From contig JAFUPM010000058.1 of assembly GCA_017481225.1 (NCBI GenBank), forward strand, positions 1-62,180: 62,180 nt of DNA, read 5' to 3'. The position numbers and the translations under genes were made by a program. The stretch comes from Clostridia bacterium (GTDB taxonomy: Bacteria; Bacillota; Clostridia; Oscillospirales; CAG-272). Shown here piece by piece: positions 8,735 through 53,658 of the stretch (within the stretch, counting starts at the first letter, position 1; every line of letters begins with the position of its first letter). The notes below the pieces were generated by a model. The model saw nothing but the letters and a program-made list of their open reading frames with translations. It was not told the origin of the DNA and made no database searches.

Positions 8735-9889
8735 ATGAAAACTCCCGAAACTTCAAAGCTCTTCACCAAGGTAGTAGACCCGCAAAGCGGCGTACCGCAC
8801 TACGTGCTTACAGAGCGCAAGACAGCCTATCAGCAGGGCTTCTACTTCGTCAACAATTCTATGTCACGGGATGGCAGATATCTCTGGTTTTACGCCGTGC
8901 CCAACCCCGTTTACACCACTATGGACCGCAACCTCGGATACGTAGATTTCCTTTCCGACGAGGTGGTTATCTGCCACGACGTCCTCTTTGACGATGCCTC
9001 CCCCTACGTTGACCCCGACACAGGCGACGTCTACTATGCAAAGGGCAGAAAAATCTACAAGCGCGAGCCGAAAAAGGATAAGATGGCAGAGGTTGTCTGC
9101 ACCGTAAATATCCCCGGGTACATACTGAAGCTTGCAACTCACCTCACTATGACCTCGGATAAAAAGCACTTTTTCCTTGACGTCAACCGCGAGGACTTCG
9201 GCTGTATGCAGGGACTTGTAAATATCGAGACGGGCAAGTTTACCGAATGGACGAGAAGCTCTCACAACACCAACCACGGACAGATAAATCCCCAAAACGA
9301 CAGCCTTGGGCTTTGCGCCTACGACTCCTTTAGCAGAATGTCCGACGGCTCTAAGGTAAGTATTCCCTACACCGATGACGGCATTTATCAAAGACTTTGG
9401 ACGGTAACGTCCGAGGGCGAGCGCAAAATGTACCCCGCAATGCACAACTACGCCACCCACGAATGGTGGTCAGCCGACGGCAAGAAGATATACTACTGCT
9501 GTGATAAGCAGGGAATATACGGCAAAAACATCGAGACGGGCGAGGATATTGCCATTCTCGAGGGCGTTGACCCCTGGCACGCACATTGCACGAAGGACGA
9601 GACACTCTTCATCTATGACGAGAAAAAGCTTGAGCGTTACGGCGGAAAGTGGTACAGAGGCTGCCCCGCGGCGCTGAATTTCCTTAACAGAAGGACGGGC
9701 AAAAGCCTCGTTGTCGTAACCGAAATGCCCGAAAACGGCTTCACCCCCGACAACCAGACCGCCTACCACATTGACCCCCACCCCCGCTTCTCCGAAAACG
9801 AAAAATACGTTATATTCTCAACTACCGAGCTTGGCGGCTGCGACCTGGCAGTTGCTTCGGTTGACGAGCTTGTAGCTCTCACCAAGTAA
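8735..9889 (+). CDS. PL22 (Ogl)-like beta-propeller protein, paralog 2
   Basis: The ORF is 384 aa. Its N-terminal half is closest to paralog 3, and aa ~250-345 are closest to paralog 1. It carries YHIDPHPRFSENEKYVIFST and has no signal peptide. Confidence 0.6.
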   Translation: MKTPETSKLFTKVVDPQSGVPHYVLTERKTAYQQGFYFVNNSMSRDGRYLWFYAVPNPVYTTMDRNLGYVDFLSDEVVICHDVLFDDASPYVDPDTGDVYYAKGRKIYKREPKKDKMAEVVCTVNIPGYILKLATHLTMTSDKKHFFLDVNREDFGCMQGLVNIETGKFTEWTRSSHNTNHGQINPQNDSLGLCAYDSFSRMSDGSKVSIPYTDDGIYQRLWTVTSEGERKMYPAMHNYATHEWWSADGKKIYYCCDKQGIYGKNIETGEDIAILEGVDPWHAHCTKDETLFIYDEKKLERYGGKWYRGCPAALNFLNRRTGKSLVVVTEMPENGFTPDNQTAYHIDPHPRFSENEKYVIFSTTELGGCDLAVASVDELVALTK

Positions 9890-10259: not shown

Positions 10260-11408
10260 ATGAAAACTCCAGAAACCTCAAAGCTTTTCAAAAGAGTAAC
10301 AGACAAGGTAAGCGGCGTGCCGTATTACGTGCTTGCAGAGCGCAAGACAGCCTACCAGCAGGGCTTCTACTTTGTCAATAATTCTATGTCACACGACGGC
10401 AGATATCTCTGGTTCTACGCCGTGCCTAATCCGGTCTATGACGATATGAACCGATACCTTGGCTACGTGGATTTCCTCGCCGACGAGGTGGTTACCTGCT
10501 ACGACGCGCTTTTCGATGCCGCATCCCCTTACGTTGACCCCGACACGGGAGACGTCTACTACACACGTGGCAAGGGCATCTACAAAAGAGAGCCTAAAAA
10601 GGATGCTCTTGCCGTGCGACTCTGCACGGCAAACATACCCGGCTACGTATTCACTCTCGCCACGCACCTCACTATGACGTCGGACAAAAAGCACCTCTTT
10701 CTCGACGTGCGCCGCGCGGACTTCGGAACTATGCAGGGGCTGGTTGATATTGAAAGCGGCGAGTTTACCGAGTGGACCCGAAGCGAATACAATATGAATC
10801 ACGGTCAGATTAATCCAAAGAATGAGACAATTGCCCTTTGTGCATACGACAGCTACTCTAAGCTTTCCGACTGGGCGAAGGTAAGGATTCCCTACACCGA
10901 CGACGGCATCTACCAAAGGCTCTGGACGGTGAGGGCTGACGGCACTCGCACCTTGCACCCCGCCCGCGACAACTACGCCACCCACGAATGGTGGTCAGCA
11001 GACGGCAAAAAAATATACTACGTCAACGACCTCGGCATACAGCGTCTCAATCTTGAGACAGGGGAGCACGTCTGCATACACGAATGTTATCCCTGGCACG
11101 CCCACACCACAAGCGACGAGAAGTATTACGTTTTCGACGAAAAGGTGCTTGACCGCTACGACGGAAAATGGTATCGCGGCTGTCCTGCGAGAGTTCGCTT
11201 CTATAACCGCGAAACGGATAAGGAAATAACCGTAGTCACCGAGATGCCCGAAAACGAATTCACGCCCACCCATCAGAACAATTACCATATCGATCCTCAC
11301 CCCCGCTTCTCGGAAAACGAAAAATACATTATATTCTCAACCACCGAGCTTGGCGGATGCGACCTGGCGCTTGCCTCGGTTGACGAGCTTGTAGCTCTGA
11401 CAAAGTGA
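10260..11408 (+). CDS. PL22 (Ogl)-like beta-propeller protein, paralog 3
   Basis: The ORF is 382 aa. Its last residues (ASVDELVALTK) are identical to those of paralog 2. It carries YHIDPHPRFSENEKYIIFST. Confidence 0.6.
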   Translation: MKTPETSKLFKRVTDKVSGVPYYVLAERKTAYQQGFYFVNNSMSHDGRYLWFYAVPNPVYDDMNRYLGYVDFLADEVVTCYDALFDAASPYVDPDTGDVYYTRGKGIYKREPKKDALAVRLCTANIPGYVFTLATHLTMTSDKKHLFLDVRRADFGTMQGLVDIESGEFTEWTRSEYNMNHGQINPKNETIALCAYDSYSKLSDWAKVRIPYTDDGIYQRLWTVRADGTRTLHPARDNYATHEWWSADGKKIYYVNDLGIQRLNLETGEHVCIHECYPWHAHTTSDEKYYVFDEKVLDRYDGKWYRGCPARVRFYNRETDKEITVVTEMPENEFTPTHQNNYHIDPHPRFSENEKYIIFSTTELGGCDLALASVDELVALTK

Positions 11409-19782: not shown

Positions 19783-20101
19783 AAAACTTTTTATCGACGA
19801 TAATCGAGCGTTAAAGCATACTCATTCTACACCGGCGAGGGTTTCACGCAGACACATATTGAGTTTGTAAGATATGCGATAAGGGTTCGGCAGCTTCTGC
19901 ACCCAACACGCAGGTACACCGTCGAAATGCTTTTGGCTAAACCCATGACACGCAGGGGCCTCTTCGGTAGCAACGCAACAAGAGTAGTGGACTACGAAAA
20001 GTCTCTCTTTGAATTTTAAGGCAAGACGGTAATGCCGAAATCGACCCCTGTGATTCGAATGTGTATTCGTTGTGCTCGAAACAATAAGGTCTATTTAATT
20101 A

Positions 20102-20150
20102 AAGCGGTTGTCCTTTACCGAAGTGGTATCAAACAACCGCTTTTGCTTTT
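20102..20150. terminator. Hairpin terminator adjacent to the LRR lipoprotein stop codon
   Basis: A 10-bp stem pairs AAGCGGTTGT (20102..20111) with ACAACCGCTT (20133..20142). The T-rich tail (TTGCTTTTATT) is on the + strand, so this hairpin may also end a rightward transcript from 19800-20100. Confidence 0.5.
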
Positions 20151-20154
20151 ATTG

Positions 20155-21492
20155 CTATATCTCTATTGTTTCATCAGTGCAGATGATATACTTAAGAGTG
20201 TCATCATACCAATCTCCGCCGCCAAGTATGCCAGTATAATTATCCTTTATTATATTTTTCCACTCTTCAATAGTTCCATCATAATTAATGCTTTCGAGAT
20301 TGCTACATTCCGAAAACGCACCAGGACATATAGTTTTTACGCTATTAGGAATTGTTATGCTTTCCAATTCTGTACATCCTTCGAAAGCTCCAATCCCTAT
20401 AAATGTAACACTGTCAGAAATAACCACGCTCTTTAAACTACAGCCAGCAAACACATAGTGATTAATTTTAGATACAGTATCAGGTATTACTATATTTTCC
20501 AGAACCTCACCATTAACACAAACCTCACCAAAGCCCCCCGATTGACCTCCAAAGCCTTCAATTTCTACATGGCACCAAGCAGCTATGTCGGAAACGTGTA
20601 TTTGCTCGATGGATACTTTGTTAAATGCATACAATCCGATTTTTTTAACGCTGGCAGGAATGGTGACCTTATCCAAAAAGGTGAACTTAGTCAATATTCC
20701 GCAACTAAATGAATCAATCGTGGTAATTCCATCGAGCAAAACTATTTCTTTAGTATATTCACTATCCCAAATCCATGGAATGCTATTACATCCAAATACG
20801 ATTTTCTTTATAGCGGGTTCGTCTAAGATTCTGTTTGATGAGTCATTGTACGGCGAGTGGTAATATACAGTATTTAAATTGCTCGCCTTATAAAAAATCT
20901 GTGTTCCTATTTCAGTAACAGAATCAGGAATGGTTATTTCTGTGATTCCCTCGCATGCATAAAATGCTCTTGTACCAATAGCATTTACCGTCTTAGGAAT
21001 AGTTACAGCAGTAATGCTTTTGTTTTCAGAAAAAGCTTTATCCCCTATGCCTGTAACCATATATCCATCAATTTTCTCGGGAATAATTACTTCTGTATCC
21101 TCACAAGCACCAATTCCCGTAATTGTACACGTAGTTTTATCTGCGTTTATAGTATATGCAAGTCCTATTGAGCCTGTAGCGTGCAAGATTTCTTCAGCAA
21201 GCCTTTTACTGCAAACTGTGCACTCTTTATATCTATAGCCATCATCTGTGGCGGTGGGATCTTTAACAATCCAATCGCTTTCAATGTGCCCAACGGCAGC
21301 GGTTATTCTTGTCTCGCTTTCACCGCAAGAGCAGTTTCTCTTTTCTATCTTATTCGATGTGCAGCTGCCCTGAGTAATCACATTCCATTGTCCGTATACG
21401 TGCTTATGACTGTTATCATCACCGTTTCCACACGAAGCAAGTAGAAACAATGCGATTATCAGTAGCGTAAATAAACCAAAATGCTTTTTCAT
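20155..21492 (-). CDS. Surface lipoprotein with BspA-type leucine-rich repeats
   Basis: The ORF is 445 aa. It has a lipoprotein signal with lipobox (MKKHFGLFTLLIIALFLLASC). Repeated ..ITIP.SV..IG..AF..C..L modules are present. The DNA is visibly AT-rich compared with its flanks. Confidence 0.8.
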   Translation of the reverse strand: MKKHFGLFTLLIIALFLLASCGNGDDNSHKHVYGQWNVITQGSCTSNKIEKRNCSCGESETRITAAVGHIESDWIVKDPTATDDGYRYKECTVCSKRLAEEILHATGSIGLAYTINADKTTCTITGIGACEDTEVIIPEKIDGYMVTGIGDKAFSENKSITAVTIPKTVNAIGTRAFYACEGITEITIPDSVTEIGTQIFYKASNLNTVYYHSPYNDSSNRILDEPAIKKIVFGCNSIPWIWDSEYTKEIVLLDGITTIDSFSCGILTKFTFLDKVTIPASVKKIGLYAFNKVSIEQIHVSDIAAWCHVEIEGFGGQSGGFGEVCVNGEVLENIVIPDTVSKINHYVFAGCSLKSVVISDSVTFIGIGAFEGCTELESITIPNSVKTICPGAFSECSNLESINYDGTIEEWKNIIKDNYTGILGGGDWYDDTLKYIICTDETIEI

Positions 21493-21622
21493 ATTTCCTC
21501 CAACGCTATAAATTCTTAGTAAATTATTTACTAATATAGTATATTATAGTTTGTTTTTGCATAAATGTCAATAGTTTTAGTAAAAAATATTATAATTAGT
21601 CCAGTTATATAAGGAGGCAATT

Positions 21623-21895
21623 ATGAAAATAGGAGAAAAAATCAGAAATTCACGTGAAGATATGGATATGTCTCAAGAGGATGTTTCCAAACTTATACCG
21701 ATGAATCAATCTAGTTATTCGAAGATAGAACGTGATATCCAAGAGCCGAGCCTCGAGCAATTAAGGCGAATTTGCCAAATTCTAAACATAGATCCTTCTT
21801 ATCTTCTGTCTCTTGGCGATTACGAAAATTCTACAAATAATGACGTTCGGTTTGCTAAGGAAGTAAAGAGGTTATACGAAAAAATATATATGTAA
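21623..21895 (+). CDS. XRE-family HTH transcriptional regulator
   Basis: The ORF is 90 aa with an AAGGAGG RBS. MSQEDVSKLIPMNQSSYSKIERDIQEPSLEQLRRICQILNI is a typical Cro/C1 HTH. Confidence 0.8.
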   Translation: MKIGEKIRNSREDMDMSQEDVSKLIPMNQSSYSKIERDIQEPSLEQLRRICQILNIDPSYLLSLGDYENSTNNDVRFAKEVKRLYEKIYM

Positions 21896-22028
21896 TTAAG
21901 CCTACACAAGTAAAAGCCATCTTCGCGCAAAGGGGATGTTCTTTTTGAAAAATTCACTAAGCGCAAATATTGCATTGGATAGTTCAAATGCAATACGTGT
22001 TAAGGCCACCGTACTTATAACGACAGAA

Positions 22029-29815: not shown

Positions 29816-31561
29816 CTACTTATCAAGCAGCGCAATATAAACCTTTTCATCTCCGTAAATAACGGTGAATATCTGAATATTTGCTTTCAGGTCCTTCCGT
29901 ATTCCGTCAAAATACCCGAAAACGTTAGAGTCATCGGCAGGGATAAAGGTCAGCATAAATCTGCCGTCAATGCCGAAGGCTACCGCCTTATCGAATATAG
30001 CCTTTGCCTCGGCTCTTGAATCAAGGATGAAGTCGTATTCGCTGCCCTTGAGGTTCATATCAAAATAATCGAAGGGCGCGGGCGCGGGCGACTTTTCTAT
30101 CTCGCTCCATACGCCGCCGTATGAGTACTCCGACTTGTGGTAATCAAGGGGCTTCAGAAACGCGCCGTAGCCCACAGCCTCAACGGCAGAGCCGAAGAAG
30201 GCGGCAATTCCGCTGTCTGCGGTGTATCGCTCGTCACCGCTTGTGGTATCCACAAGGTACCAGCCCCCATTAAGATTTACGTAATTCCAGGCGTGACCGA
30301 CTCCGCCCGAAAGAGAGGAGCCCGAGACGCGCAGAGTCCTTATGCCCTCAATTCCGCAGAGGAGAACGAACGCCTTGGTTTTGCCGTCGCAAACGGCACG
30401 GCCTTTTTCAAATACACCCTCAAGGTAATAGCAGGTGTCCTTTTTCAGCTCGTAAATTGCATCTGCGTTGCCCTCGGAGTTGACCTTCGTCGATTTATCA
30501 AAGGCGTCGTAGTCGTAAGATATTCCGTCAACCAAATACTCGTAAATGGCAATAACCTTCTCAGTGTCGGTCATACTGTCGTTTACGATATCGCGCAAAA
30601 TCATTTTCGCGCGCTCAAAGAACAGCTCAGCCTTGGTGTTCGCCATAGGAAACACGGGGAGATATCCCTGCTCCACAGCCCACCAAAGCTCCTCGGAGTT
30701 ATAAACCTCAAAGCTTTCAAGATTAGATTTATAAATAGCGAAGTCGTTAAAGTTATCAGCCCTTGCGACCCCTGCCGCCTCGGCAAAGGCGCGCCTTGCA
30801 ATCATATTGGCGCTCTGGGCGGGAAGGTAGGTATTCTTCTCTGTCAAGGGCGTGGTTTCGCTTGCCGCCTCGGCAAGGTAGCTTATCTCAAACTCTGCGC
30901 GGTGAGCCGTGTCCTCGTAGTAGAGTATTTTCAGCTTTGCGTGGGAGCCAAGCTCGATATCAAGCTCAAAGTCCTCGTTAACCTTGAAGCTTTCGGAAAT
31001 ACCCGAAAAATCAATACAAAACGAGTGATATCTGTGCGCTATGGCGAGGTCGAGAATTCTGTTCGCCTCGTAGTTGCTTTGTACCTTGTGATATTCCCCG
31101 TCCTTAAGGTCGCTTGTAAAATCATAGCCCGAGGTGGATATCATAAACTCAACGGTCACCGAGAAGGTTGCAAGGCACTCGTCCCCGACCTTCATATAAA
31201 TCTCGGTTCGTCCTACGGACTCTCCCGTAACAACAGCTCCCGAAAGAGAGGCAATCTCTTCGCATCTTGACTCAAATACAGCCTCTTTCGGCGCACCCGT
31301 GTCGAGAAATTCCACAAGATTTGCACTCTCGCTTTTCATAAGATAGACGGGTATAACACCCGTTTTTGTAAAGGCTTCACCGTCCCAGCCCTCGGGCGGC
31401 TTTTCCTCCCCCTCGGGGAAGGTAACCTCACCTCCGGGGTCACCTGTGCCCGAGGTGCCGTCGGACACACCGGGCAGCTCAAGCAAAAAAGTGCAGCTGA
31501 CAAGCGACAGCATAAGAGCCACCGTCAAAGCGAGCGATATTAATTTAATTTTTATTTTCAT
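29816..31561 (-). CDS. Lipoprotein with transglutaminase-like cysteine protease core
   Basis: The ORF is 581 aa with lipobox LSLVSC. It has a C/H/D core: GRAVCDGKTKAFVLLCG, GHAWNYVNL and LVDTTSGD. It ends 38 nt before the copA start on the same strand. Confidence 0.75.
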   Translation of the reverse strand: MKIKIKLISLALTVALMLSLVSCTFLLELPGVSDGTSGTGDPGGEVTFPEGEEKPPEGWDGEAFTKTGVIPVYLMKSESANLVEFLDTGAPKEAVFESRCEEIASLSGAVVTGESVGRTEIYMKVGDECLATFSVTVEFMISTSGYDFTSDLKDGEYHKVQSNYEANRILDLAIAHRYHSFCIDFSGISESFKVNEDFELDIELGSHAKLKILYYEDTAHRAEFEISYLAEAASETTPLTEKNTYLPAQSANMIARRAFAEAAGVARADNFNDFAIYKSNLESFEVYNSEELWWAVEQGYLPVFPMANTKAELFFERAKMILRDIVNDSMTDTEKVIAIYEYLVDGISYDYDAFDKSTKVNSEGNADAIYELKKDTCYYLEGVFEKGRAVCDGKTKAFVLLCGIEGIRTLRVSGSSLSGGVGHAWNYVNLNGGWYLVDTTSGDERYTADSGIAAFFGSAVEAVGYGAFLKPLDYHKSEYSYGGVWSEIEKSPAPAPFDYFDMNLKGSEYDFILDSRAEAKAIFDKAVAFGIDGRFMLTFIPADDSNVFGYFDGIRKDLKANIQIFTVIYGDEKVYIALLDK

Positions 31562-47006: not shown

Positions 47007-47795
47007 CTAGTCCTCAATTACTATGCAATTTACAAAGCCCGAGCAAGCGGTGCAGGCATCTATGGCAATAATTCCCTCGCCGTAGTAAGGAGTGAAAACC
47101 GCCCACTCGCCAAACTCCGAGCCAACTCCGTCAAGCACCGAATGACCGTAGGACGCGTGAAAATGACCGCATACGACGGTTTTGCCGGGCTCTACTACAC
47201 CGTGCTTGCAGGCAAGCTCCATACCGTTCAGCCATTTTGCACCTCGCCAGGCTATGCTGTCGGCATCTCTCCAATCGGGGTTATAGCTGTAGCTTGCCCG
47301 TGGCGGATAGCCTTCTATAACCGAGGGTATCCAGCCGTGGACGAAAACGTAGCCTTCCGTCTCAAAGTAATTAACCGCAGAGGGCAAAAGCGAAGTGTAA
47401 TAAGGAGAGCGCATCACCCGTCGTACAAGCTCCTCGGGGCAGGCGTAAGCCCCGGCACAGTCCATACCGCTAAGCTGCAAGAGCGTATCCCAGGTTCCGT
47501 TTCTTTCGTGGACGGACATACCCGAGGCAATCTCGTGAACGCCGCCTCTTGCAATCTCGTACAGGCATCTCACAAGCAGCTCCTCGTGGTTTCCGTTAAT
47601 GTAAATAAGCCTTCCCGCCTCGTGTAGCTTCAGGCAAAAATCAACGAGCAATGAAGCCTCCCCTCCTCTGTCAAGAAGGTCACCGCACACAATAAGCCGA
47701 GAGGACTCCCCCTCGTCAAAAAAGCCTGCCCCCCGAAGCGACTCCATAATCTCCGTATAGTAGCCGTGTGTGTCAGCTACAACGTAATATTTCAT
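47007..47795 (-). CDS. Metallophosphoesterase of the Ser/Thr-phosphatase (lambda PPase/PrpE-like) type
   Basis: The ORF is 262 aa with the motifs VVADTHGYY, CGDLLDRG, NGNHE and CGHFH. Confidence 0.75.
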   Translation of the reverse strand: MKYYVVADTHGYYTEIMESLRGAGFFDEGESSRLIVCGDLLDRGGEASLLVDFCLKLHEAGRLIYINGNHEELLVRCLYEIARGGVHEIASGMSVHERNGTWDTLLQLSGMDCAGAYACPEELVRRVMRSPYYTSLLPSAVNYFETEGYVFVHGWIPSVIEGYPPRASYSYNPDWRDADSIAWRGAKWLNGMELACKHGVVEPGKTVVCGHFHASYGHSVLDGVGSEFGEWAVFTPYYGEGIIAIDACTACSGFVNCIVIED

Positions 47796-47915: not shown

Positions 47916-50900
47916 TTACAGCTTCACAGCTGACGACGAGAATATTTCGTCAATTTCCTTTTCCTTAAGATGGTTGCGCTCCATAAGCGCATCAACCATT
48001 TTATCTATAGCGCGCCTGTTTTTTTCAATAATCTCTACAGCCTTCCGTAGCTCCTCTGCGAGTATATTATTCACGCTATCGCGTACAGACTCGGGGGTCG
48101 TGCCGTTCAGCTGACGGGTGCTAAGTCCGATATCCTCGTACATTCCGTAGGAGCAAATCATATGCTCCGCTATACGCGTTGCCGATTGAAGGTCGCCCGA
48201 CGCCCCCGTGGAAATTCCGTCGGGATAGCCGTAATAAACAAGCTCCGCCGCCCTGCCGCCAAGGGAGGTGCGTATTCTGTCAAGAAGCTCCGGTCTTGTG
48301 TAGCTTCCCTTATCCTCGCTGTTTGCGTGCTGCATATATCCGCCGTGGTCGCCTCTGGCAACAACGGTAAGGTAGGTAGGCTTCTCTCCGCACAGCCAGC
48401 AAATCAGCGCGTGGCCCGCCTCGTGTCTTGCAGTACGGATAAGAGAGTCGGGGCTCCACTCCTTTTTCTCACCGCTGTTGAAGGTCTCGAACGCCTCCTC
48501 GAACTCCGCGTCACCAACAGTACCGCTATCCGAACGTATAGCGCTTCGCAAAGCCATCTCGAATACAGACTCTAACTCTGCAAGGCTCATTCCCGTGGAG
48601 CGCATAGCGATATTATCCACTTGCTCGGGGCTGAGCTTCACGGAGGAGTTCTTCGACAGCTTCATCTCGATATAACGTCTGCGCTCCTCCTTGTTCGGAA
48701 GGTCAACGTAAATTCTTCTGTCAAATCTGCGTAGCAATGCCCCGTCAAGACTCTTTCCGTTACCGGGCTCTACGCCGTAATTCGTAGCGGCAAGGACGAA
48801 CACGGGCTTCGTGGTATCTGTATTAAAGCCGTCCATTTCCGTAAGGAGCGCCGTAAGAATATCTCCCGTAGAGGAGGAGTCGGATATGCTGTCTCTGTTC
48901 TTGCCTACGGCGTCTATCTCGTCAATGAAAACTATCGTGGGCGCGTATTTTCTAGCCGTCTTGAACAGCGAGTGAACCGCCTCGGGTCCCTCTCCCACAA
49001 AGCGCTTTAGGAATTGGTTGCCCTCAGCGCGGATAAAGGTCACGCCCGACTCGCCCGCCATCGCCTTGGCAAGGAGTGTTTTGCCCGTACCGGGAGGTCC
49101 GTAAAGCAGGACGCCCTTAGGCGCTCTCACGCCGCGGCGCAGGTATTCTATGGGATTTTTCAGGTATTTAACAAAGTATTTTAGCTCGTCCTTTGCGCCC
49201 TCGGCTCCGATAACGTCGTCAAAGTGAACGTTTGGCCTCGTCACGTCGTCAAGAACTCCGCCCGAGTCCTCGGTATCGGTTATGAGGGAAAGCTTGAAGC
49301 CGAAAAGTCGGATTTCGGCAGACTTTCCGTCAGGAGAGATTATCTGAGCCGTCTTATAGGACATAGCGCGGCTCTCTCTTGCAAGCATATTCATCTTGCT
49401 CTGCTGATATGCAATCTTGCACCTTTCAAGCACAGCTTCGGCAAACTCACCCGTCTCCCCCTTCAGCGTAAGAACGTCTCTCACGCCGAGCCTTGCGAAG
49501 GACAGCAGCTCAGCCTTGGATATATCGCCCTTGTTTTGCTCAAGAACGTATACGGGCAGCGAGTATTTCTCCAGCACGTACAGCACAAAGTCTCTGCCCT
49601 CGGAGTCGATATCCTCGGCATTGAGAACCTTTATTTCGCTACGCCTCGGATTGAAGCTGATGTCGGAAATAATAAGGTCTATATCGTGATTAAAGAGAAT
49701 TTCCTTAGCTGTGGCAATGCTGTCAGCCGTGTGACATACGACCTTGTCACCAAGTCTTTTTTTACATTCCGCACAGACCCTCTTGCCCGAGAACACGAGG
49801 ACCTCGGATTTGCGCCCGGAGTCAAACAGCTCCTCGGCATCACCCATAAGCTCCTCCTTCGGAACGCTTACGTTAATCTCCGAGAGCCCTTCTATTACCG
49901 AATCGCCGTCGGGCAGGAGCCTGAACAGCTCGTAAAGCTCGTCGTAGAAGAAGGAATTTGCTCTGCCCTTGACGGTTCTGGCATCAGCCTTGCCGCCCTC
50001 GGCAAACATTATGGCACCGGCAACTCTGTCGTCAACGTTGATATTTATGCCCATCGCCCTCTCGAGACCCTCTACGTTTTTCGAAAGCTCGCGTTTAGCT
50101 ATATTGTAAAGGTTGCACGCCTCAAGGTGGTTGAACATAACCACGTTTCCCGAGGCAAAGCGCGAGCATATCGCCGCGGGGAAAAGAGGCTCCCCGATTG
50201 CAGGGTTGACGTCTTTTTCCAGAGCCTTAAGTATCTTTTTCCTCGGCAAAGAGGAAAGGTTTACCACACTCGGGTCGTTATAAAGATTTTTGCCTACGTT
50301 TGTTGTAAGTATTATGACCGCATTTGTAAAGCTTACGGTTCTTGTGGTGTTGTTATCTGTCAGATGACCCGCATCAAGCATCTGTAAAAACAGGTGAATT
50401 ACGTTAATATGCGCCTTCTCTATCTCGTCGAAAAGAAGCACGCAATGAGGGTTCTTCTCAACAAAGCCCGTAACCGCGCCCTCGCTTGCCGCTTGGTAGC
50501 TTGGAGGCGTACCGCAGAACTCGTGGTGGGAGGAGGGAGAGGCGTACTCGCTCATATCAAATCGCTTGAAGGGCTTACCGAGAGCCTCCGCCGCCTTCTC
50601 CGCAAGGAAGGTTTTTCCTACGCCGGGAGGGCCTGCGAAAAGAAAGGTCGCCTGGGGCTTGGTTGTATCTCCGCGGGAGCTTGCCATAAGCCTCGACTGG
50701 AAATATCCCGAAACGAATGCGCTTACCGCGCGGTCCTGACCGAACACCGAGTCAAGGAGGGTGGTCTGTATCTCTCTGGTTGTCTTGACAAGCTCGGAAA
50801 GAGACGGCACCTCCTCAGCCTTCGTGAGCTTTTCCTCGAGCTCACCCTCGGTGTGCCCCTCCTCTGCCTTCGGCAGGGATTTATCCTTATCACCTTCTGT

Positions 50901-51377
50901 GGAAGATGCCTTAGGGAACCACTTATCAAAGCTGAGGTCGCTTACGGGCTTTACCTCGGGGTCGCGTATAACGCACTCCTTAATGGCGGTGGTGGGCTTC
51001 GTAAGTATGGAATCAAGATACATCGCAGCGTCCACAAGCTCAAGATTGCCGTCCTTCGCCTTTTTCTCAGCGTCGGATACAACGATATTGAACATTATAT
51101 CGTCGCCAAGAGAGCCTTTTGCGGCATTCACCTTCAGATATGCTCGAATATCGCCGAGGGCTGCTTTTATATCAACGGAGTGTTTGTCAAGTGACTCGCG
51201 AATAGCCGCAAGCTCGCTTTTGGTTTGCTTGCATTTTACCTCCTCGGGAAGGCACTTTTCTCCCTCGAGCAGCACCTCGAGAACCGAAGCTACGAAGTGG
51301 TTGGCATTTGGAGACTTCAACGCAAGCTCTCTCGCGCGCCCAAGTATATATTCTAAAAACAGACTTTTCTTAATCAT
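47916..51377 (-). CDS. Soluble chimeric AAA+ protease: Clp_N-like + ClpA/B-D2-type AAA+ + REC-like module + FtsH-type AAA+ + M41 zinc peptidase
   Basis: The ORF is 1153 aa with no hydrophobic helix.
- aa 205-480 are ClpB-D2-like: VFGQDRAVSAF, FLFAGPPGVGKT, VLLFDEIEKAH, LDAGHLTDNNTTRTVSFTNAVIILTTNVG.
- aa ~524-645 are CheY-like: VLVFSG...DLIISDISF...PVYVLEQ...GVRDVLTLKG.
- aa 715-960 are FtsH-like: GVLLYGPPGTGKTLLAKA (nt 49100..49077), IVFIDEIDAVG, LLRRFDRRIYVDLP.
- The HEAGH motif lies at nt 48425..48411, followed by LGGRAAELVYYG. Confidence 0.8.
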   Translation of the reverse strand: MIKKSLFLEYILGRARELALKSPNANHFVASVLEVLLEGEKCLPEEVKCKQTKSELAAIRESLDKHSVDIKAALGDIRAYLKVNAAKGSLGDDIMFNIVVSDAEKKAKDGNLELVDAAMYLDSILTKPTTAIKECVIRDPEVKPVSDLSFDKWFPKASSTEGDKDKSLPKAEEGHTEGELEEKLTKAEEVPSLSELVKTTREIQTTLLDSVFGQDRAVSAFVSGYFQSRLMASSRGDTTKPQATFLFAGPPGVGKTFLAEKAAEALGKPFKRFDMSEYASPSSHHEFCGTPPSYQAASEGAVTGFVEKNPHCVLLFDEIEKAHINVIHLFLQMLDAGHLTDNNTTRTVSFTNAVIILTTNVGKNLYNDPSVVNLSSLPRKKILKALEKDVNPAIGEPLFPAAICSRFASGNVVMFNHLEACNLYNIAKRELSKNVEGLERAMGININVDDRVAGAIMFAEGGKADARTVKGRANSFFYDELYELFRLLPDGDSVIEGLSEINVSVPKEELMGDAEELFDSGRKSEVLVFSGKRVCAECKKRLGDKVVCHTADSIATAKEILFNHDIDLIISDISFNPRRSEIKVLNAEDIDSEGRDFVLYVLEKYSLPVYVLEQNKGDISKAELLSFARLGVRDVLTLKGETGEFAEAVLERCKIAYQQSKMNMLARESRAMSYKTAQIISPDGKSAEIRLFGFKLSLITDTEDSGGVLDDVTRPNVHFDDVIGAEGAKDELKYFVKYLKNPIEYLRRGVRAPKGVLLYGPPGTGKTLLAKAMAGESGVTFIRAEGNQFLKRFVGEGPEAVHSLFKTARKYAPTIVFIDEIDAVGKNRDSISDSSSTGDILTALLTEMDGFNTDTTKPVFVLAATNYGVEPGNGKSLDGALLRRFDRRIYVDLPNKEERRRYIEMKLSKNSSVKLSPEQVDNIAMRSTGMSLAELESVFEMALRSAIRSDSGTVGDAEFEEAFETFNSGEKKEWSPDSLIRTARHEAGHALICWLCGEKPTYLTVVARGDHGGYMQHANSEDKGSYTRPELLDRIRTSLGGRAAELVYYGYPDGISTGASGDLQSATRIAEHMICSYGMYEDIGLSTRQLNGTTPESVRDSVNNILAEELRKAVEIIEKNRRAIDKMVDALMERNHLKEKEIDEIFSSSAVKL

Positions 51378-51419: not shown

Positions 51420-53207
51420 TTACCTCGAGCCAACGCTTCCGTCCTTACGTTTTTCCTCCTCGTCGAGGCTGGAAAAGTCTACGAGGTCATTGTGCATTTT
51501 TCCAAGGTCGTTGCGGCTTGTGGGGTCGGGAGAACCGCTGTAAACGTAGCCCTCCGACCTCATATATGCATTCCAGCGGCGATGCTCCAGCACCTCAATT
51601 GCAGCTCGCTCCTGCTCGCTAAGCTCCGCCTCCGCCTTATCTGCACCGGGTATGCCGCAGACTATACGGGCTCTCATATGAATAGCCGAGGCAACGGAGG
51701 AACGGTAGTTATAGCCGTAGCTCCAGAACTCCTCCTCATCACCCCATTTCAGATGACGGGCAAGAGCCGCACCCTCAAGCTCGGAGTCGAGTATTACGTC
51801 GCAGGTAAAGGAGGACTCCGCATCGCCAAGGAACTCAATATCGTAGGGCTGACCCTTGTAGTTCTTTATACCATCAAGAGCGCGTTTTTGCTGCGATGAG
51901 TAAACTATTGTTTGTATTTTGGGGTGAATTCCCATTCTTTCGAAGTACATTCTGAGGTTCACCGCGGTGTTAATATTAAGTGTATCATTGCCGAGCGCAA
52001 TCATAACGTAGGTAGTGTCCTTGAGCTTGGAAATCTCTTCTGCAAAGCCCCAAGCTTCAACGTCAAAGCCAGGGTGCAACTCAATGGAATACTGCGCCTC
52101 GCCCTCCACGCAAACCCCGTTATACTTCGGGGACATAAGCTCGGGAGCTATAGCCGTAAAGCGTTCGCCTGCAAGGGGGTCCTTATCAAAGGCGTGTATC
52201 TTGAGGGTATATCCGTCCATCTGCCCGAACCAGGCGAGTGCCTTCACCATTTCGGTGCCGTGGTTACCCATACCTATTACAACCGCGGTAATCTTTTTCT
52301 CTCCGTCGGGCATCGGCTTTGCAGTATTGAAAATTACCTCGCCTCGCTCATAGAGAACGCGGTCTATAAGAGACTCAACCTCGTTAATCCTTCTGACCTT
52401 GATTTTACCCTTGCTCGACGAGTTGAGAAGCAGCTCGCACTCAATATGCGTGGAGAAAACGTACAGACGTGTCCCGACTCTCTCCTTGTATTTTTCAATA
52501 AGCTCAAGAGAGGCCTTCAGATTTTCCGTCTCGTCCTCGCTTATGGCGAAGAAGGACAAGGCAGCCTTCGCCGAATGTCTGTCAAAATCAAAGCTTTGAA
52601 CGTCCTGCCTCATACAGATAGCGCCAATCTCGGCAGCATCTCTTAAAAGCTCAAGCCCGCCGTCCTCTCCGTTGAATACGCTCGTAAATACGATAGCGGC
52701 TTTAGGGAAGCTTTTCTTAATATCGCGGGCGAGGACCAGCGACTTTTCGTTAAGTGCTGAAAGAACGTACACGTCCTTAAAATAAACGGCAAGATATTTG
52801 AGGTGCGCGCTAAGGTTTTTGAACAGCGACAGCACAAAGCCGAAGGTAAATACGGGAGCAACCACGAACAGAAGTGAAACCCACGCGTTATAGCCGGGCG
52901 CCAACCACTCGGGGCAAAGGGGCATAGATTCAGCAACAACGCCGAACTCACAGCCTATAGCAAAAATCTGCATTGAGTTAAAGACCGACAAAAACAGCGA
53001 CCTTACAACTCCGAAAAAGCTCGCCTCTGCCACTGCCTTATGTACGGGGAAGAACATAAACATCGCCGAAACGAACACCCCGCCGAAAAGGGAGTTAAAC
53101 AGATTAAATCTATGTTTTCTGCCGAACTCGCTGTTGCTTATTACAAGCGATACAAGCGGCACGAGCACCACGCAGGCTATCGACAGCGCAAAGCATACTG
53201 ACCACAT
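51420..53207 (-). CDS. Membrane protein: 4 TM helices + two Rossmann/KTN-like modules + C-terminal RyR-like domain
   Basis: The ORF is 595 aa with an AGAGG RBS. Hydrophobic helices lie within aa 1-130. A GxGxxG motif is present (VVIGMGNHGTEM, aa 309-320). The C-terminal EVLEHRRWNAYMRSEGYVYSG...LGKMHNDLVDFSSLDEEEKRKD fits the RyR-domain pattern as I recall it. Confidence 0.7.
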   Translation of the reverse strand: MWSVCFALSIACVVLVPLVSLVISNSEFGRKHRFNLFNSLFGGVFVSAMFMFFPVHKAVAEASFFGVVRSLFLSVFNSMQIFAIGCEFGVVAESMPLCPEWLAPGYNAWVSLLFVVAPVFTFGFVLSLFKNLSAHLKYLAVYFKDVYVLSALNEKSLVLARDIKKSFPKAAIVFTSVFNGEDGGLELLRDAAEIGAICMRQDVQSFDFDRHSAKAALSFFAISEDETENLKASLELIEKYKERVGTRLYVFSTHIECELLLNSSSKGKIKVRRINEVESLIDRVLYERGEVIFNTAKPMPDGEKKITAVVIGMGNHGTEMVKALAWFGQMDGYTLKIHAFDKDPLAGERFTAIAPELMSPKYNGVCVEGEAQYSIELHPGFDVEAWGFAEEISKLKDTTYVMIALGNDTLNINTAVNLRMYFERMGIHPKIQTIVYSSQQKRALDGIKNYKGQPYDIEFLGDAESSFTCDVILDSELEGAALARHLKWGDEEEFWSYGYNYRSSVASAIHMRARIVCGIPGADKAEAELSEQERAAIEVLEHRRWNAYMRSEGYVYSGSPDPTSRNDLGKMHNDLVDFSSLDEEEKRKDGSVGSR

Positions 53208-53240: not shown

Positions 53241-53269
53241 ATTATAACACGGCTGTCGACCCTTGTCAA
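53241..53269 (-). promoter_or_regulatory. Consensus sigma-70 promoter of the RyR-protein/AAA+ protease operon
   Basis: On the minus strand, an exact TTGACA (53269..53264) is followed by 17 nt and an exact TATAAT (53246..53241). The site lies ~35 nt upstream of ATG 53207. Confidence 0.65.
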
Positions 53270-53623: not shown

Positions 53624-53658
53624 AAAATATAAAAAGGCGAGGCAATATTTGCCTCGCC
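53624..53658 (-). terminator. Terminator of nagB
   Basis: The stem pairs GGCGAGGCA (53636..53644) with TGCCTCGCC (53650..53658). On the minus strand it is followed by UUUUUAUAUUUU. Confidence 0.7.

Follow-up and report, generated by a model that had tools for sequence, protein, structure and literature searches.

A single gene in a stretch of Clostridia DNA is read here as encoding a protease that joins two different unfolding motors and a zinc peptidase in one chain. The stretch, hereafter the window, comprises the 62,180 nucleotides of contig JAFUPM010000058.1 (positions 1 to 62,180, assembly GCA_017481225.1), and the gene occupies positions 47916..51377 on the minus strand. Its 1153-residue product contains, from N to C terminus, a Clp_N-like domain, a D2-type AAA+ module, a receiver-like insert, a classical-clade AAA+ module, and an M41 peptidase. 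We read it as a cytosolic, single-polypeptide, two-tier AAA+ zinc metalloprotease, a reading to which we assign a probability of about 0.6 and whose mechanism would follow from the solved structures of ClpA and FtsH. The architecture is previously undescribed and is widely conserved among gut and rumen Clostridia.

The open reading frame (ORF) starts with ATG and runs for 1153 codons plus a stop codon (47916-47918); all features of the protein given below lie on the minus strand. An AAGGA ribosome-binding site is located 9 nucleotides 5' of the ATG, and homologues align from residue 1. An earlier note, made from the sequence alone, had placed a 1153-residue ORF at 47916-51377 without stating its strand, and both the ORF and the domain order that the note proposed are borne out by sequence profiles, structural models, and Foldseek comparisons. 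All the motifs that it quoted are present in the translation: FGQDRAV (212-218), GPPGVGKT (249-256), LLFDEIEKA (314-322), LDAGHLTD...IILTTN (334-360), DLIISD (567-572), GPPGTGKT (760-767), FIDEIDAVG (817-825), HEAGH (985-989), and LGGRAAE (1039-1045). Moreover, the distinction that it drew between two AAA+ classes followed by an M41 domain has strong profile support, since Pfam AAA_2, AAA, and Peptidase_M41 all match strongly and without overlap. Its statement that no transmembrane segment is present also holds: no transmembrane helix is predicted because the highest 19-residue Kyte-Doolittle mean in the whole protein is only 1.14.

The first AAA+ module is of the ClpA/B/C D2 type. Its large domain (residues 205-389; 50211..50765) is matched by Pfam AAA_2 at residues 240-389 (E 2.7e-39) and carries a Walker A motif (249-256), a pore tyrosine (Tyr294), the Walker B residues D317 and E318, and a sensor-1 asparagine (N360). 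The D2 half of the NCBIfam ClpA model aligns with residues 196-456, and the ClpA and ClpB alignments reach residue ~456. The closest sequence in the PDB is likewise the D2 domain of ClpA (E 1.8e-34), with about half of ~160 residues identical in the alignment as printed. The following D2 small-domain-like region (residues 390-~520; 49818..50210), delimited by NCBIfam and PDB-sequence alignments, holds an Arg finger (R406) and the sensor-2 arginine of a 'DAR' motif (R467), and the alignments with ClpC and Hsp104 sequences from the PDB extend into the D2 small domain. The earlier note had described a motif-for-motif D2 alignment with a small-domain-like tail; the AAA_2 and ClpA D2 profiles and these extended alignments agree with it, whereas Pfam ClpB_D2-small gave no match in a sub-segment scan of residues 390-525. 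This is the only Clp-type module in the chain: no D1 module was found with Pfam, NCBIfam, or PDB sequences, and the N-domain is followed by a 64-residue linker and then by D2, with no insertion of the size of a ClpB-type coiled-coil middle domain. Docking onto ClpP was also considered and is ruled out, because the docking tripeptide [ILMV]G[FLM] between sensor 1 and the Arg finger occurs in none of 119 homologues.

The second AAA+ module (residues 715-972; 48462..49235) belongs to the classical clade, as seen in its matches to Pfam AAA (residues 756-892, E 1.3e-49), to the FtsH_fam model, and to PDB sequences of FtsH and of the VAT/Cdc48 D2 domains. It contains a Walker A motif (760-767), a pore-loop aromatic residue (F793), the Walker B residues D819 and E820, a sensor-1 asparagine (N866), the arginines R883 and R884 of the second region of homology, and a lid, which Pfam AAA_lid_3 matches weakly (E 2e-4, sub-segment scan of residues 870-976). 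It is followed by an M41 zinc peptidase (residues 975-1153; 47919..48455), for which the earlier note had relied on HEAGH and LGGRAAE and which is confirmed by Pfam Peptidase_M41 at residues 981-1145 (E 1.5e-33). Besides the H985-E-A-G-H989 motif, D1062 is probably the third zinc ligand of the M41 site, an assignment that we take from its motif similarity to FtsH. The NCBIfam FtsH_fam model (TIGR01241) aligns residues 713-1142 with its profile positions 155-598, so the match begins after the transmembrane and periplasmic part, and the equivalog score of 354.6 bits is below the cut-off of 600. In addition, PDB sequences of FtsH cytosolic regions can be aligned from end to end with the last 440 residues (E ~1e-75). 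The FtsH-like label that the earlier note gave to residues 715-960 therefore needs a qualification: taken alone, the AAA+ module is equally close to the Cdc48/VAT D2 domains and to the AAA domain of FtsH in PDB sequences, and it is called FtsH-type mainly because the AAA+ and M41 unit as a whole aligns end to end with FtsH.

The catalytic residues of both motors and of the peptidase are retained across the family. Residue counts were taken over 83 sequences, based on 82 full-length representatives with 28-53% identity to the window protein (median 38%). In the D2 module the Walker A lysine is kept in 82, the Walker B glutamate in 79, the sensor-1 asparagine in 76, the Arg finger R406 in 77, the sensor-2 arginine R467 in 76, and an aromatic pore residue (Y, F, or W) in 65. 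In the second module the Walker A lysine is present in all 83, the Walker B glutamate in 79, N866 in 79, R883 in 77, and R884 in 80, and the aromatic pore residue is also kept, while in the peptidase both HExxH and D1062 are found in 82. Because these functional residues are retained among representatives of such low identity, both motors and the peptidase are under purifying selection, and the fusion protein is likely active. Given that the catalytic residues of the two ATPase tiers and of the zinc site persist throughout the family, a two-tier unfoldase-protease is the natural reading.

The family is large and consistent in its layout. A search of ~5.8 billion proteins returned more than 120 homologue clusters with 51-93% identity, nearly all of them full-length (coverage 83-100%, ~1120-1260 residues) with few shorter fragments; they come from independent ENA, JGI, NCBI, and Logan assemblies and share the same domain order and length. 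Among 20 loci (16 distinct), the fusion is encoded as a single uninterrupted ORF. With a profile of the insert only, 289 clusters at 50% identity were found among 1.84 billion representatives, 196 of them at E <= 1e-10; most are 1100-1250 residues long with the insert at the same relative position, and BLAST identified the D2, receiver, AAA, and M41 order in 92 of the top 150 representatives. Many of the shorter representatives are probably gene fragments. Where they are named, the homologues are each an 'AAA family ATPase' from metagenome-assembled genomes (MAGs) of Oscillospiraceae, Ruminococcaceae, or Clostridia, and a scan of GTDB gave only rumen or gut MAGs of Clostridia, Oscillospiraceae, and Eubacteriales. 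That scan used a 6-sequence insert alignment and covered 10 loci found through just two narrow patterns, so the spread that it gives is a lower bound; one distant cluster belongs to Candidatus Omnitrophota. In the same GTDB representative genomes, scanned with patterns that match the window's sequence, the best insert identity was 54% vs 85-93% for metagenome proteins, and thus the source species seems absent from the GTDB genome set. The earlier note knew of no characterised example, and indeed none was found in papers or curated libraries: there is no description of the family in the literature or in curated models searched, and its NCBI name is the generic one given above.

The two remaining domains were assigned mainly from AlphaFold (AF2) models, which were made for the N-domain (residues 1-142) and the insert (residues 481-716) and compared with known structures by Foldseek. 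The N-domain (residues 1-140; 50958..51377) is modelled as all-helical with a predicted local distance difference test score (pLDDT) of 91. In the PDB it is matched best by the N-domains of ClpA, Hsp104, ClpB, and ClpC (probability up to 1.0, template-modelling (TM) score 0.55-0.62, E 8e-3 and weaker). Profile searches matched Hsp104-N (E 0.003) and ClpB-N (E 1.2) weakly, and Pfam Clp_N had no match in a sub-segment scan of residues 1-200. Hence the resemblance to a double Clp_N repeat that the earlier note saw in the first ~135 residues holds for the fold and not for the Pfam profile, and the domain is best described, from its model, as a divergent Clp_N-like fold at the fold level only. The linker that follows (residues 141-204; 50766..50957) is charged, poorly conserved, rich in E, A, K, D, and S, and 40-168 residues long among homologues; it is probably flexible.

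The insert between the two motors contains a predicted degenerate, CheY-like receiver domain (residues 524-667; 49377..49808), assigned from the AF2 model, Foldseek, and column frequencies. The model (pLDDT 86) is a (beta-alpha)5 fold that ends in a long alpha5 helix of 24 residues. Among the 50 listed Foldseek matches, 48 are receiver domains or response regulators (best E 6e-6, probability 1.0, target TM score 0.7-0.79), including HupR, NtrC1, NtrX, LuxO-like proteins, PhoP, ArcA, and RssB, with NtrC-family receivers and RssB among the best; the two exceptions are a dual-sensor histidine kinase and a coiled-coil fusion construct. A profile search of the insert aligned D572 with the phospho-acceptor aspartate of ArcA. 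By contrast, Pfam Response_reg (PF00072) did not match residues 515-720 even at E <= 10, so the receiver look noted earlier is upheld by the fold and by the retained D572 and not by the family profile. A peculiarity of the family, seen across the 119 homologues, is a 20-residue loop between beta3 and alpha3 with a near-invariant LNAEDIxSxGxD motif, which ordinary receivers lack; L585, N586, E588, D589, S592, and G594 are nearly invariant in it. The chain then enters the second motor through a family-specific beta-hairpin and connector (residues 668-714; 49236..49376), in which AF2 places strands at residues 670-680 and 686-698 and for which a Pfam sub-segment scan gave no profile match.

A working model of the two-tier protease can be proposed from these parts. 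Six chains would assemble into coaxial rings, and the tethered Clp_N-like domains would capture substrates or adaptors. The D2-type ring would then grip and unfold the substrate, and the second ring would deliver it to the M41 chamber. The D2 small domain of ClpA has its C-terminus on the side of the protease, and the AAA ring of FtsH turns its N-terminus toward the side where substrates enter; for this reason the receiver-like domain should lie as a six-fold collar between the two rings. More speculatively, the collar may couple ring stacking or ring activity to a signal, as NtrC-type receivers control AAA+ rings, and its inputs could be the membrane protein described below, a YbjN-like protein encoded next to the gene in most relatives, or Ser/Thr phosphorylation. 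If such a collar exists, the protein would select its substrates under regulation and would not serve as a housekeeping protease, which is again speculative.

The fusion gene follows a gene for a 595-residue membrane protein (51420..53207, minus strand) after a gap of 43 base pairs (bp), and this gap showed no strong terminator-like site. Upstream of the membrane-protein gene lies a sigma-70-type consensus promoter, TTGACA-17-TATAAT preceded by TG (53241..53269, minus strand; 12/12 match), and the gene before it ends at a terminator-like strong hairpin (53636-53658). From this arrangement the two genes are predicted to share an operon. The membrane protein is predicted to have at least three transmembrane helices in its N-terminal part. 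It also has a Rossmann region like the NAD-binding TrkA_N domain, and its C-terminus weakly resembles ryanodine-receptor (RyR) domains (E 0.034). It gave no match with Pfam, NCBIfam, or PADLOC; it has more than 750 unnamed homologues of ~596 residues, some of which carry a precomputed TrkA_N (PF02254) annotation. The earlier note had called the fusion a self-contained two-tier unfoldase-protease. The two tiers stand, but 'self-contained' is doubtful because the gene lies 43 bp behind the membrane-protein gene under one consensus promoter and because the partner and YbjN-like, phosphatase, vWA, and kinase genes recur around it in relatives.

The membrane partner could hold the protease at the membrane or regulate it there, which is compatible with the core model. 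A stronger version makes the pair a split FtsH, in which the protease docks on the operon-encoded membrane protein and thereby gains the anchor and sensing domain that FtsH has in cis. This would agree with the co-directional genes 43 bp apart and their single promoter, with the adjacency of the partner in 6 of the 16 distinct fusion loci, where the protease is 57-62% identical and, in those of the loci with a full-length partner alignment, the partner is 59-64% identical to that of the window, and with four loci retrieved through the partner, two of which have the protease adjacent or one gene away. One of these two also carries two YbjN-like genes, a RyR-domain protein, and two Metallophos genes. 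However, the other 10 of the 16 fusion loci have no partner nearby, and the partner can be found in loci that lack the protease, either by itself or together with a TIR-domain protein: of the remaining two partner-first loci, one (L020) has a TIR_2 protein after the partner and no protease, and the other is a short contig. We thus regard such a split anchor as unlikely. The replacement of the protease by a TIR_2 protein in L020 rather suggests that the partner is a sensor with interchangeable effectors.

The other neighbours point to signalling. Downstream of the fusion gene in the window is a PPP-type metallophosphoesterase of 262 residues (47007..47795, minus strand; Pfam Metallophos; motifs DTHG, GDLLDRG, and GNHE) with weak PrpA/B, PrpE, and ApaH matches, which possibly belongs to the same module, and an alpha/beta hydrolase gene and a second Metallophos gene are also downstream. 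A PPP-type Metallophos gene is near the fusion gene in 5 of the 16 distinct loci. A YbjN-like gene of ~160 codons lies directly 3' of the protease gene, with a gap of 8-86 bp, in 10 of 14 informative loci (L003, L007, L009, L010, L013-L017, and L019) and is duplicated upstream in L021 (4258-5264). A block of one or two vWA proteins, a 702-residue protein with a weak PP2C match, a Ser/Thr kinase, and a Sel1/zinc-ribbon protein follows in 4 of the 16 loci (L003, L010, L013, and L014). Moreover, in 8 representative clusters of 1554-2126 residues (P0199, which is MBQ7008249.1 from Ruminococcus sp., P0201, P0238, P0244, P0246, P0255, P0256, and P0259), a Ser/Thr kinase is fused N-terminal to the D2, receiver, AAA, and M41 core, with TPR-like and repeated helical modules in place of the Clp_N-like domain. 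Two relatives also encode transglutaminase-core proteins near the protease gene (L007, 5175-6518; L022, 227-4114), and the window holds a weakly similar one (28% identity) at 29816-31561 on the minus strand, 17 kb from the protease gene.

One may argue from these neighbours that a variable signalling island of the stress or conflict type uses the protease as its effector, to destroy specific or bulk proteins once its kinase, phosphatase, and vWA components or the membrane sensor activate it. The recurrence of vWA, PP2C-like, kinase, Sel1/zinc-ribbon, PPP-type phosphatase, and YbjN-like neighbours, the kinase fusions, and the TIR_2 protein in the place of the protease, which suggests swappable effectors, would all fit such a role, and the triad of kinase, PP2C, and vWA has been described as a conflict-system module (PMC7159879). 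Nevertheless, PADLOC made no defence-system assignment and returned just generic AAA+ matches (IetA, DolB, and TRIP13), the window locus has no vWA, kinase, or YbjN genes, and no mobile-element or phage genes were seen near it. The genes around the locus are ordinary sugar, peptide, and ion-transport genes, and its guanine-plus-cytosine (GC) content resembles theirs. A foreign island was considered in its own right and rejected, since the GC content of the locus (0.48-0.53) is the same as in the rest of the window. A conflict effector is therefore a rather unlikely account.

A bolder proposal combines the neighbours with the insert. The receiver-derived domain might be a new inter-ring gate, switched by Ser/Thr phosphorylation, for example of the Ser592 loop beside Asp572, or by partner binding, and the protease might be the output of an unrecognised signalling island of Clostridia composed of a TrkA_N/RyR-like membrane sensor, a YbjN-like adaptor, vWA proteins, a Ser/Thr kinase, PP2C/PPP phosphatases, and interchangeable effectors (protease or TIR). 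We offer this only tentatively and think it unlikely to hold in full. Ser/Thr phosphorylation or partner binding is the more attractive input in view of the fused kinases, the neighbouring kinase and phosphatase genes, and the loop with its near-invariant Ser/Thr592.

A conventional input would be phosphorylation of D572 by a histidine kinase, a phosphorelay, or acetyl phosphate, which would switch the protease. D572 lies at the acceptor position at the end of beta3, is invariant in all 119 homologues, and sits in a receiver fold; in addition, the second acidic-pair position (531) is Asp or Glu in 73 of the 119. Yet the first position (530) is Ala in 104 of the 119, and the window protein has lost both acidic residues (S530 and G531), as the earlier note had observed. 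The Thr87-equivalent position 613 is Gln (75) or Glu (27), and Lys is found at the Lys109-equivalent position 639 in only 34, both positions being assigned from the strands of the model and not by structural superposition. As modelled, then, the insert is a degenerate receiver fold that keeps the aspartate and has lost the acidic pair, Thr, and Lys, failing three of the five receiver hallmarks. Canonical His-Asp phosphotransfer through the insert is unlikely because the acidic pair, which provides Mg2+-site residues, is lost together with Thr and Lys, and a canonical two-component receiver was rejected as the main interpretation for the same losses. The earlier note's interpretation is thus largely upheld, but it goes too far in calling the protein self-contained and in its suggestion of gating through the REC-like module, which may or may not take place. 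With no Response_reg match and no histidine kinase in the neighbourhoods examined, a genuine phospho-acceptor seems to us improbable.

Equally, the D2-type tier might be separate from proteolysis and act as a disaggregase, a remodelling ring, or a scaffold, with the second ring alone serving the M41 chamber. Clusters apparently without D2 exist, as the BLAST census found 7 with receiver, AAA, and M41 and 5 with receiver and AAA, and roughly 190 residues of insert lie between the rings. Two architectural variants carry an extra classical AAA module: P0247 has the order AAA_2, AAA, AAA, and M41, and P0250 has receiver, AAA, AAA, and M41 without a full AAA_2, its 39-bit partial match being over its second AAA module. 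However, many of the shorter entries may be fragments from short contigs, and the D2 module and the second ring alike retain their pore aromatic and ATPase residues, which makes an independent D2 tier quite improbable. Finally, the probability that a Clp gene and an FtsH gene were fused into one long ORF by an error of sequencing or assembly, a concern that the earlier note had raised for sequencing errors, is negligible, because 20 loci (16 distinct) hold one uninterrupted ORF, the more than 120 homologue clusters come from independent assemblies, and a family-specific insert bridges the two halves.

Several observations nevertheless weigh against the two-tier, signal-controlled protease that we favour. 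Ring stacking and the position of the collar are carried over by analogy from other proteins, and the likeness of the N-domain to Clp_N is confined to the fold level (TM score about 0.6; Foldseek E 8e-3 and weaker). A signalling role of the insert would lack precedent-based chemistry because the acidic pair, Thr, and Lys are lacking. The neighbourhood varies between loci: the partner lies next to the gene in just 6 of 16 and is elsewhere present without the protease, and BLAST and hidden Markov model searches found no homologue of the YbjN-like, vWA, kinase, or 702-residue PP2C-like proteins in the whole 62-kb window. Lastly, every member of the family comes from uncultured MAGs or metagenomes.

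Elsewhere in the window, a sharp dip in GC content at 20001-22000 (0.365 vs about 0.50 elsewhere) coincides with a BspA-type leucine-rich-repeat gene (20155-21492, minus strand), which may be a horizontally acquired surface-protein gene. Two neighbouring ORFs of 384 and 382 residues (8735-9889 and 10260-11408, both on the plus strand) with matching antisense ORF patterns are probably tandem paralogues.

The family has implications beyond this locus. FtsH/M41 proteases are generally regarded as machines with a single ring that must be anchored in the membrane, and the two-tier unfoldases ClpA, ClpC, and Cdc48 pass their substrates to a separate peptidase. The fusion breaks both rules in one chain, as it joins two AAA+ clades with a receiver fold between them. 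Hence, it is a natural test case for the coupling of heterologous AAA+ rings, it lets one ask whether a receiver fold can gate translocation, and it would show FtsH chemistry freed from the membrane. Because rumen and gut Oscillospiraceae and Ruminococcaceae, which are known mostly from MAGs, commonly encode the family, it may account for a significant unannotated share of proteostasis or signalling in those organisms, and the kinase fusions and conserved neighbours provide concrete, testable hypotheses.

Among known systems, FtsH, as represented by the cytosolic regions in 4ww0, 2ce7, and 3kds, shares with the fusion a classical AAA+ module followed by an M41 domain with HExxH and a downstream Asp. 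It differs in that the fusion has neither transmembrane helices nor a periplasmic domain, scores 354.6 against the 600 bits of TIGR01241, and has about 710 extra N-terminal residues that provide a second AAA+ class and a receiver fold. The class I Hsp100 proteins ClpA and ClpC, in ClpAP and ClpCP, resemble it in the N-domain at the level of the fold, in a D2 with pore Tyr, Arg finger, and sensor 2, and in two tiers stacked before a protease chamber. In contrast to them, the fusion lacks D1 and the ClpP loop, its second tier is of another AAA+ clade, and its zinc peptidase is covalently fused rather than being a separate ClpP. NtrC-family regulators (NtrC1, HupR, and NtrX) likewise have a receiver fold directly N-terminal to an AAA+ module and a long alpha5 connector, and RssB, a receiver-type protease adaptor, is among the best structural matches to the insert. 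Compared with these, the receiver of the fusion sits within the chain, has lost the acidic pair, Thr, and Lys, carries the 20-residue conserved loop, and has no histidine kinase partner in sight, and compared with the NtrC family its output would be proteolysis and not transcription. Lon is also a soluble, single-chain AAA+ protease with an N-terminal substrate-binding domain, but it has one AAA+ ring and a Ser-Lys peptidase, and it shows no specific sequence relationship to the fusion, the weak TIGR00763 match covering the P-loop only.

The published systems closest in theme are the 'FtsH ternary systems' of deltaproteobacteria, actinobacteria, and planctomycetes, which are MoxR-dependent, have vWA neighbours, and contain a protein with two FtsH-type AAA+ domains, the first of which is inactive (Kaur et al. 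2020, PMC7159879). They share with the fusion a tandem of AAA+ modules that includes an FtsH-type one, and vWA neighbourhoods, which occur in 4 of the 16 fusion loci; the kinase, PP2C, and vWA triad described in the same work is likewise similar to the block downstream of the protease in four relatives. However, the first module of the fusion is an active-looking Clp D2 type with intact Walker motifs, its hosts are Clostridia, and no MoxR was seen in any fusion-gene neighbourhood examined. In summary, the fusion protein would work like FtsH and like a ClpA/C-type two-tier unfoldase but belongs to neither.

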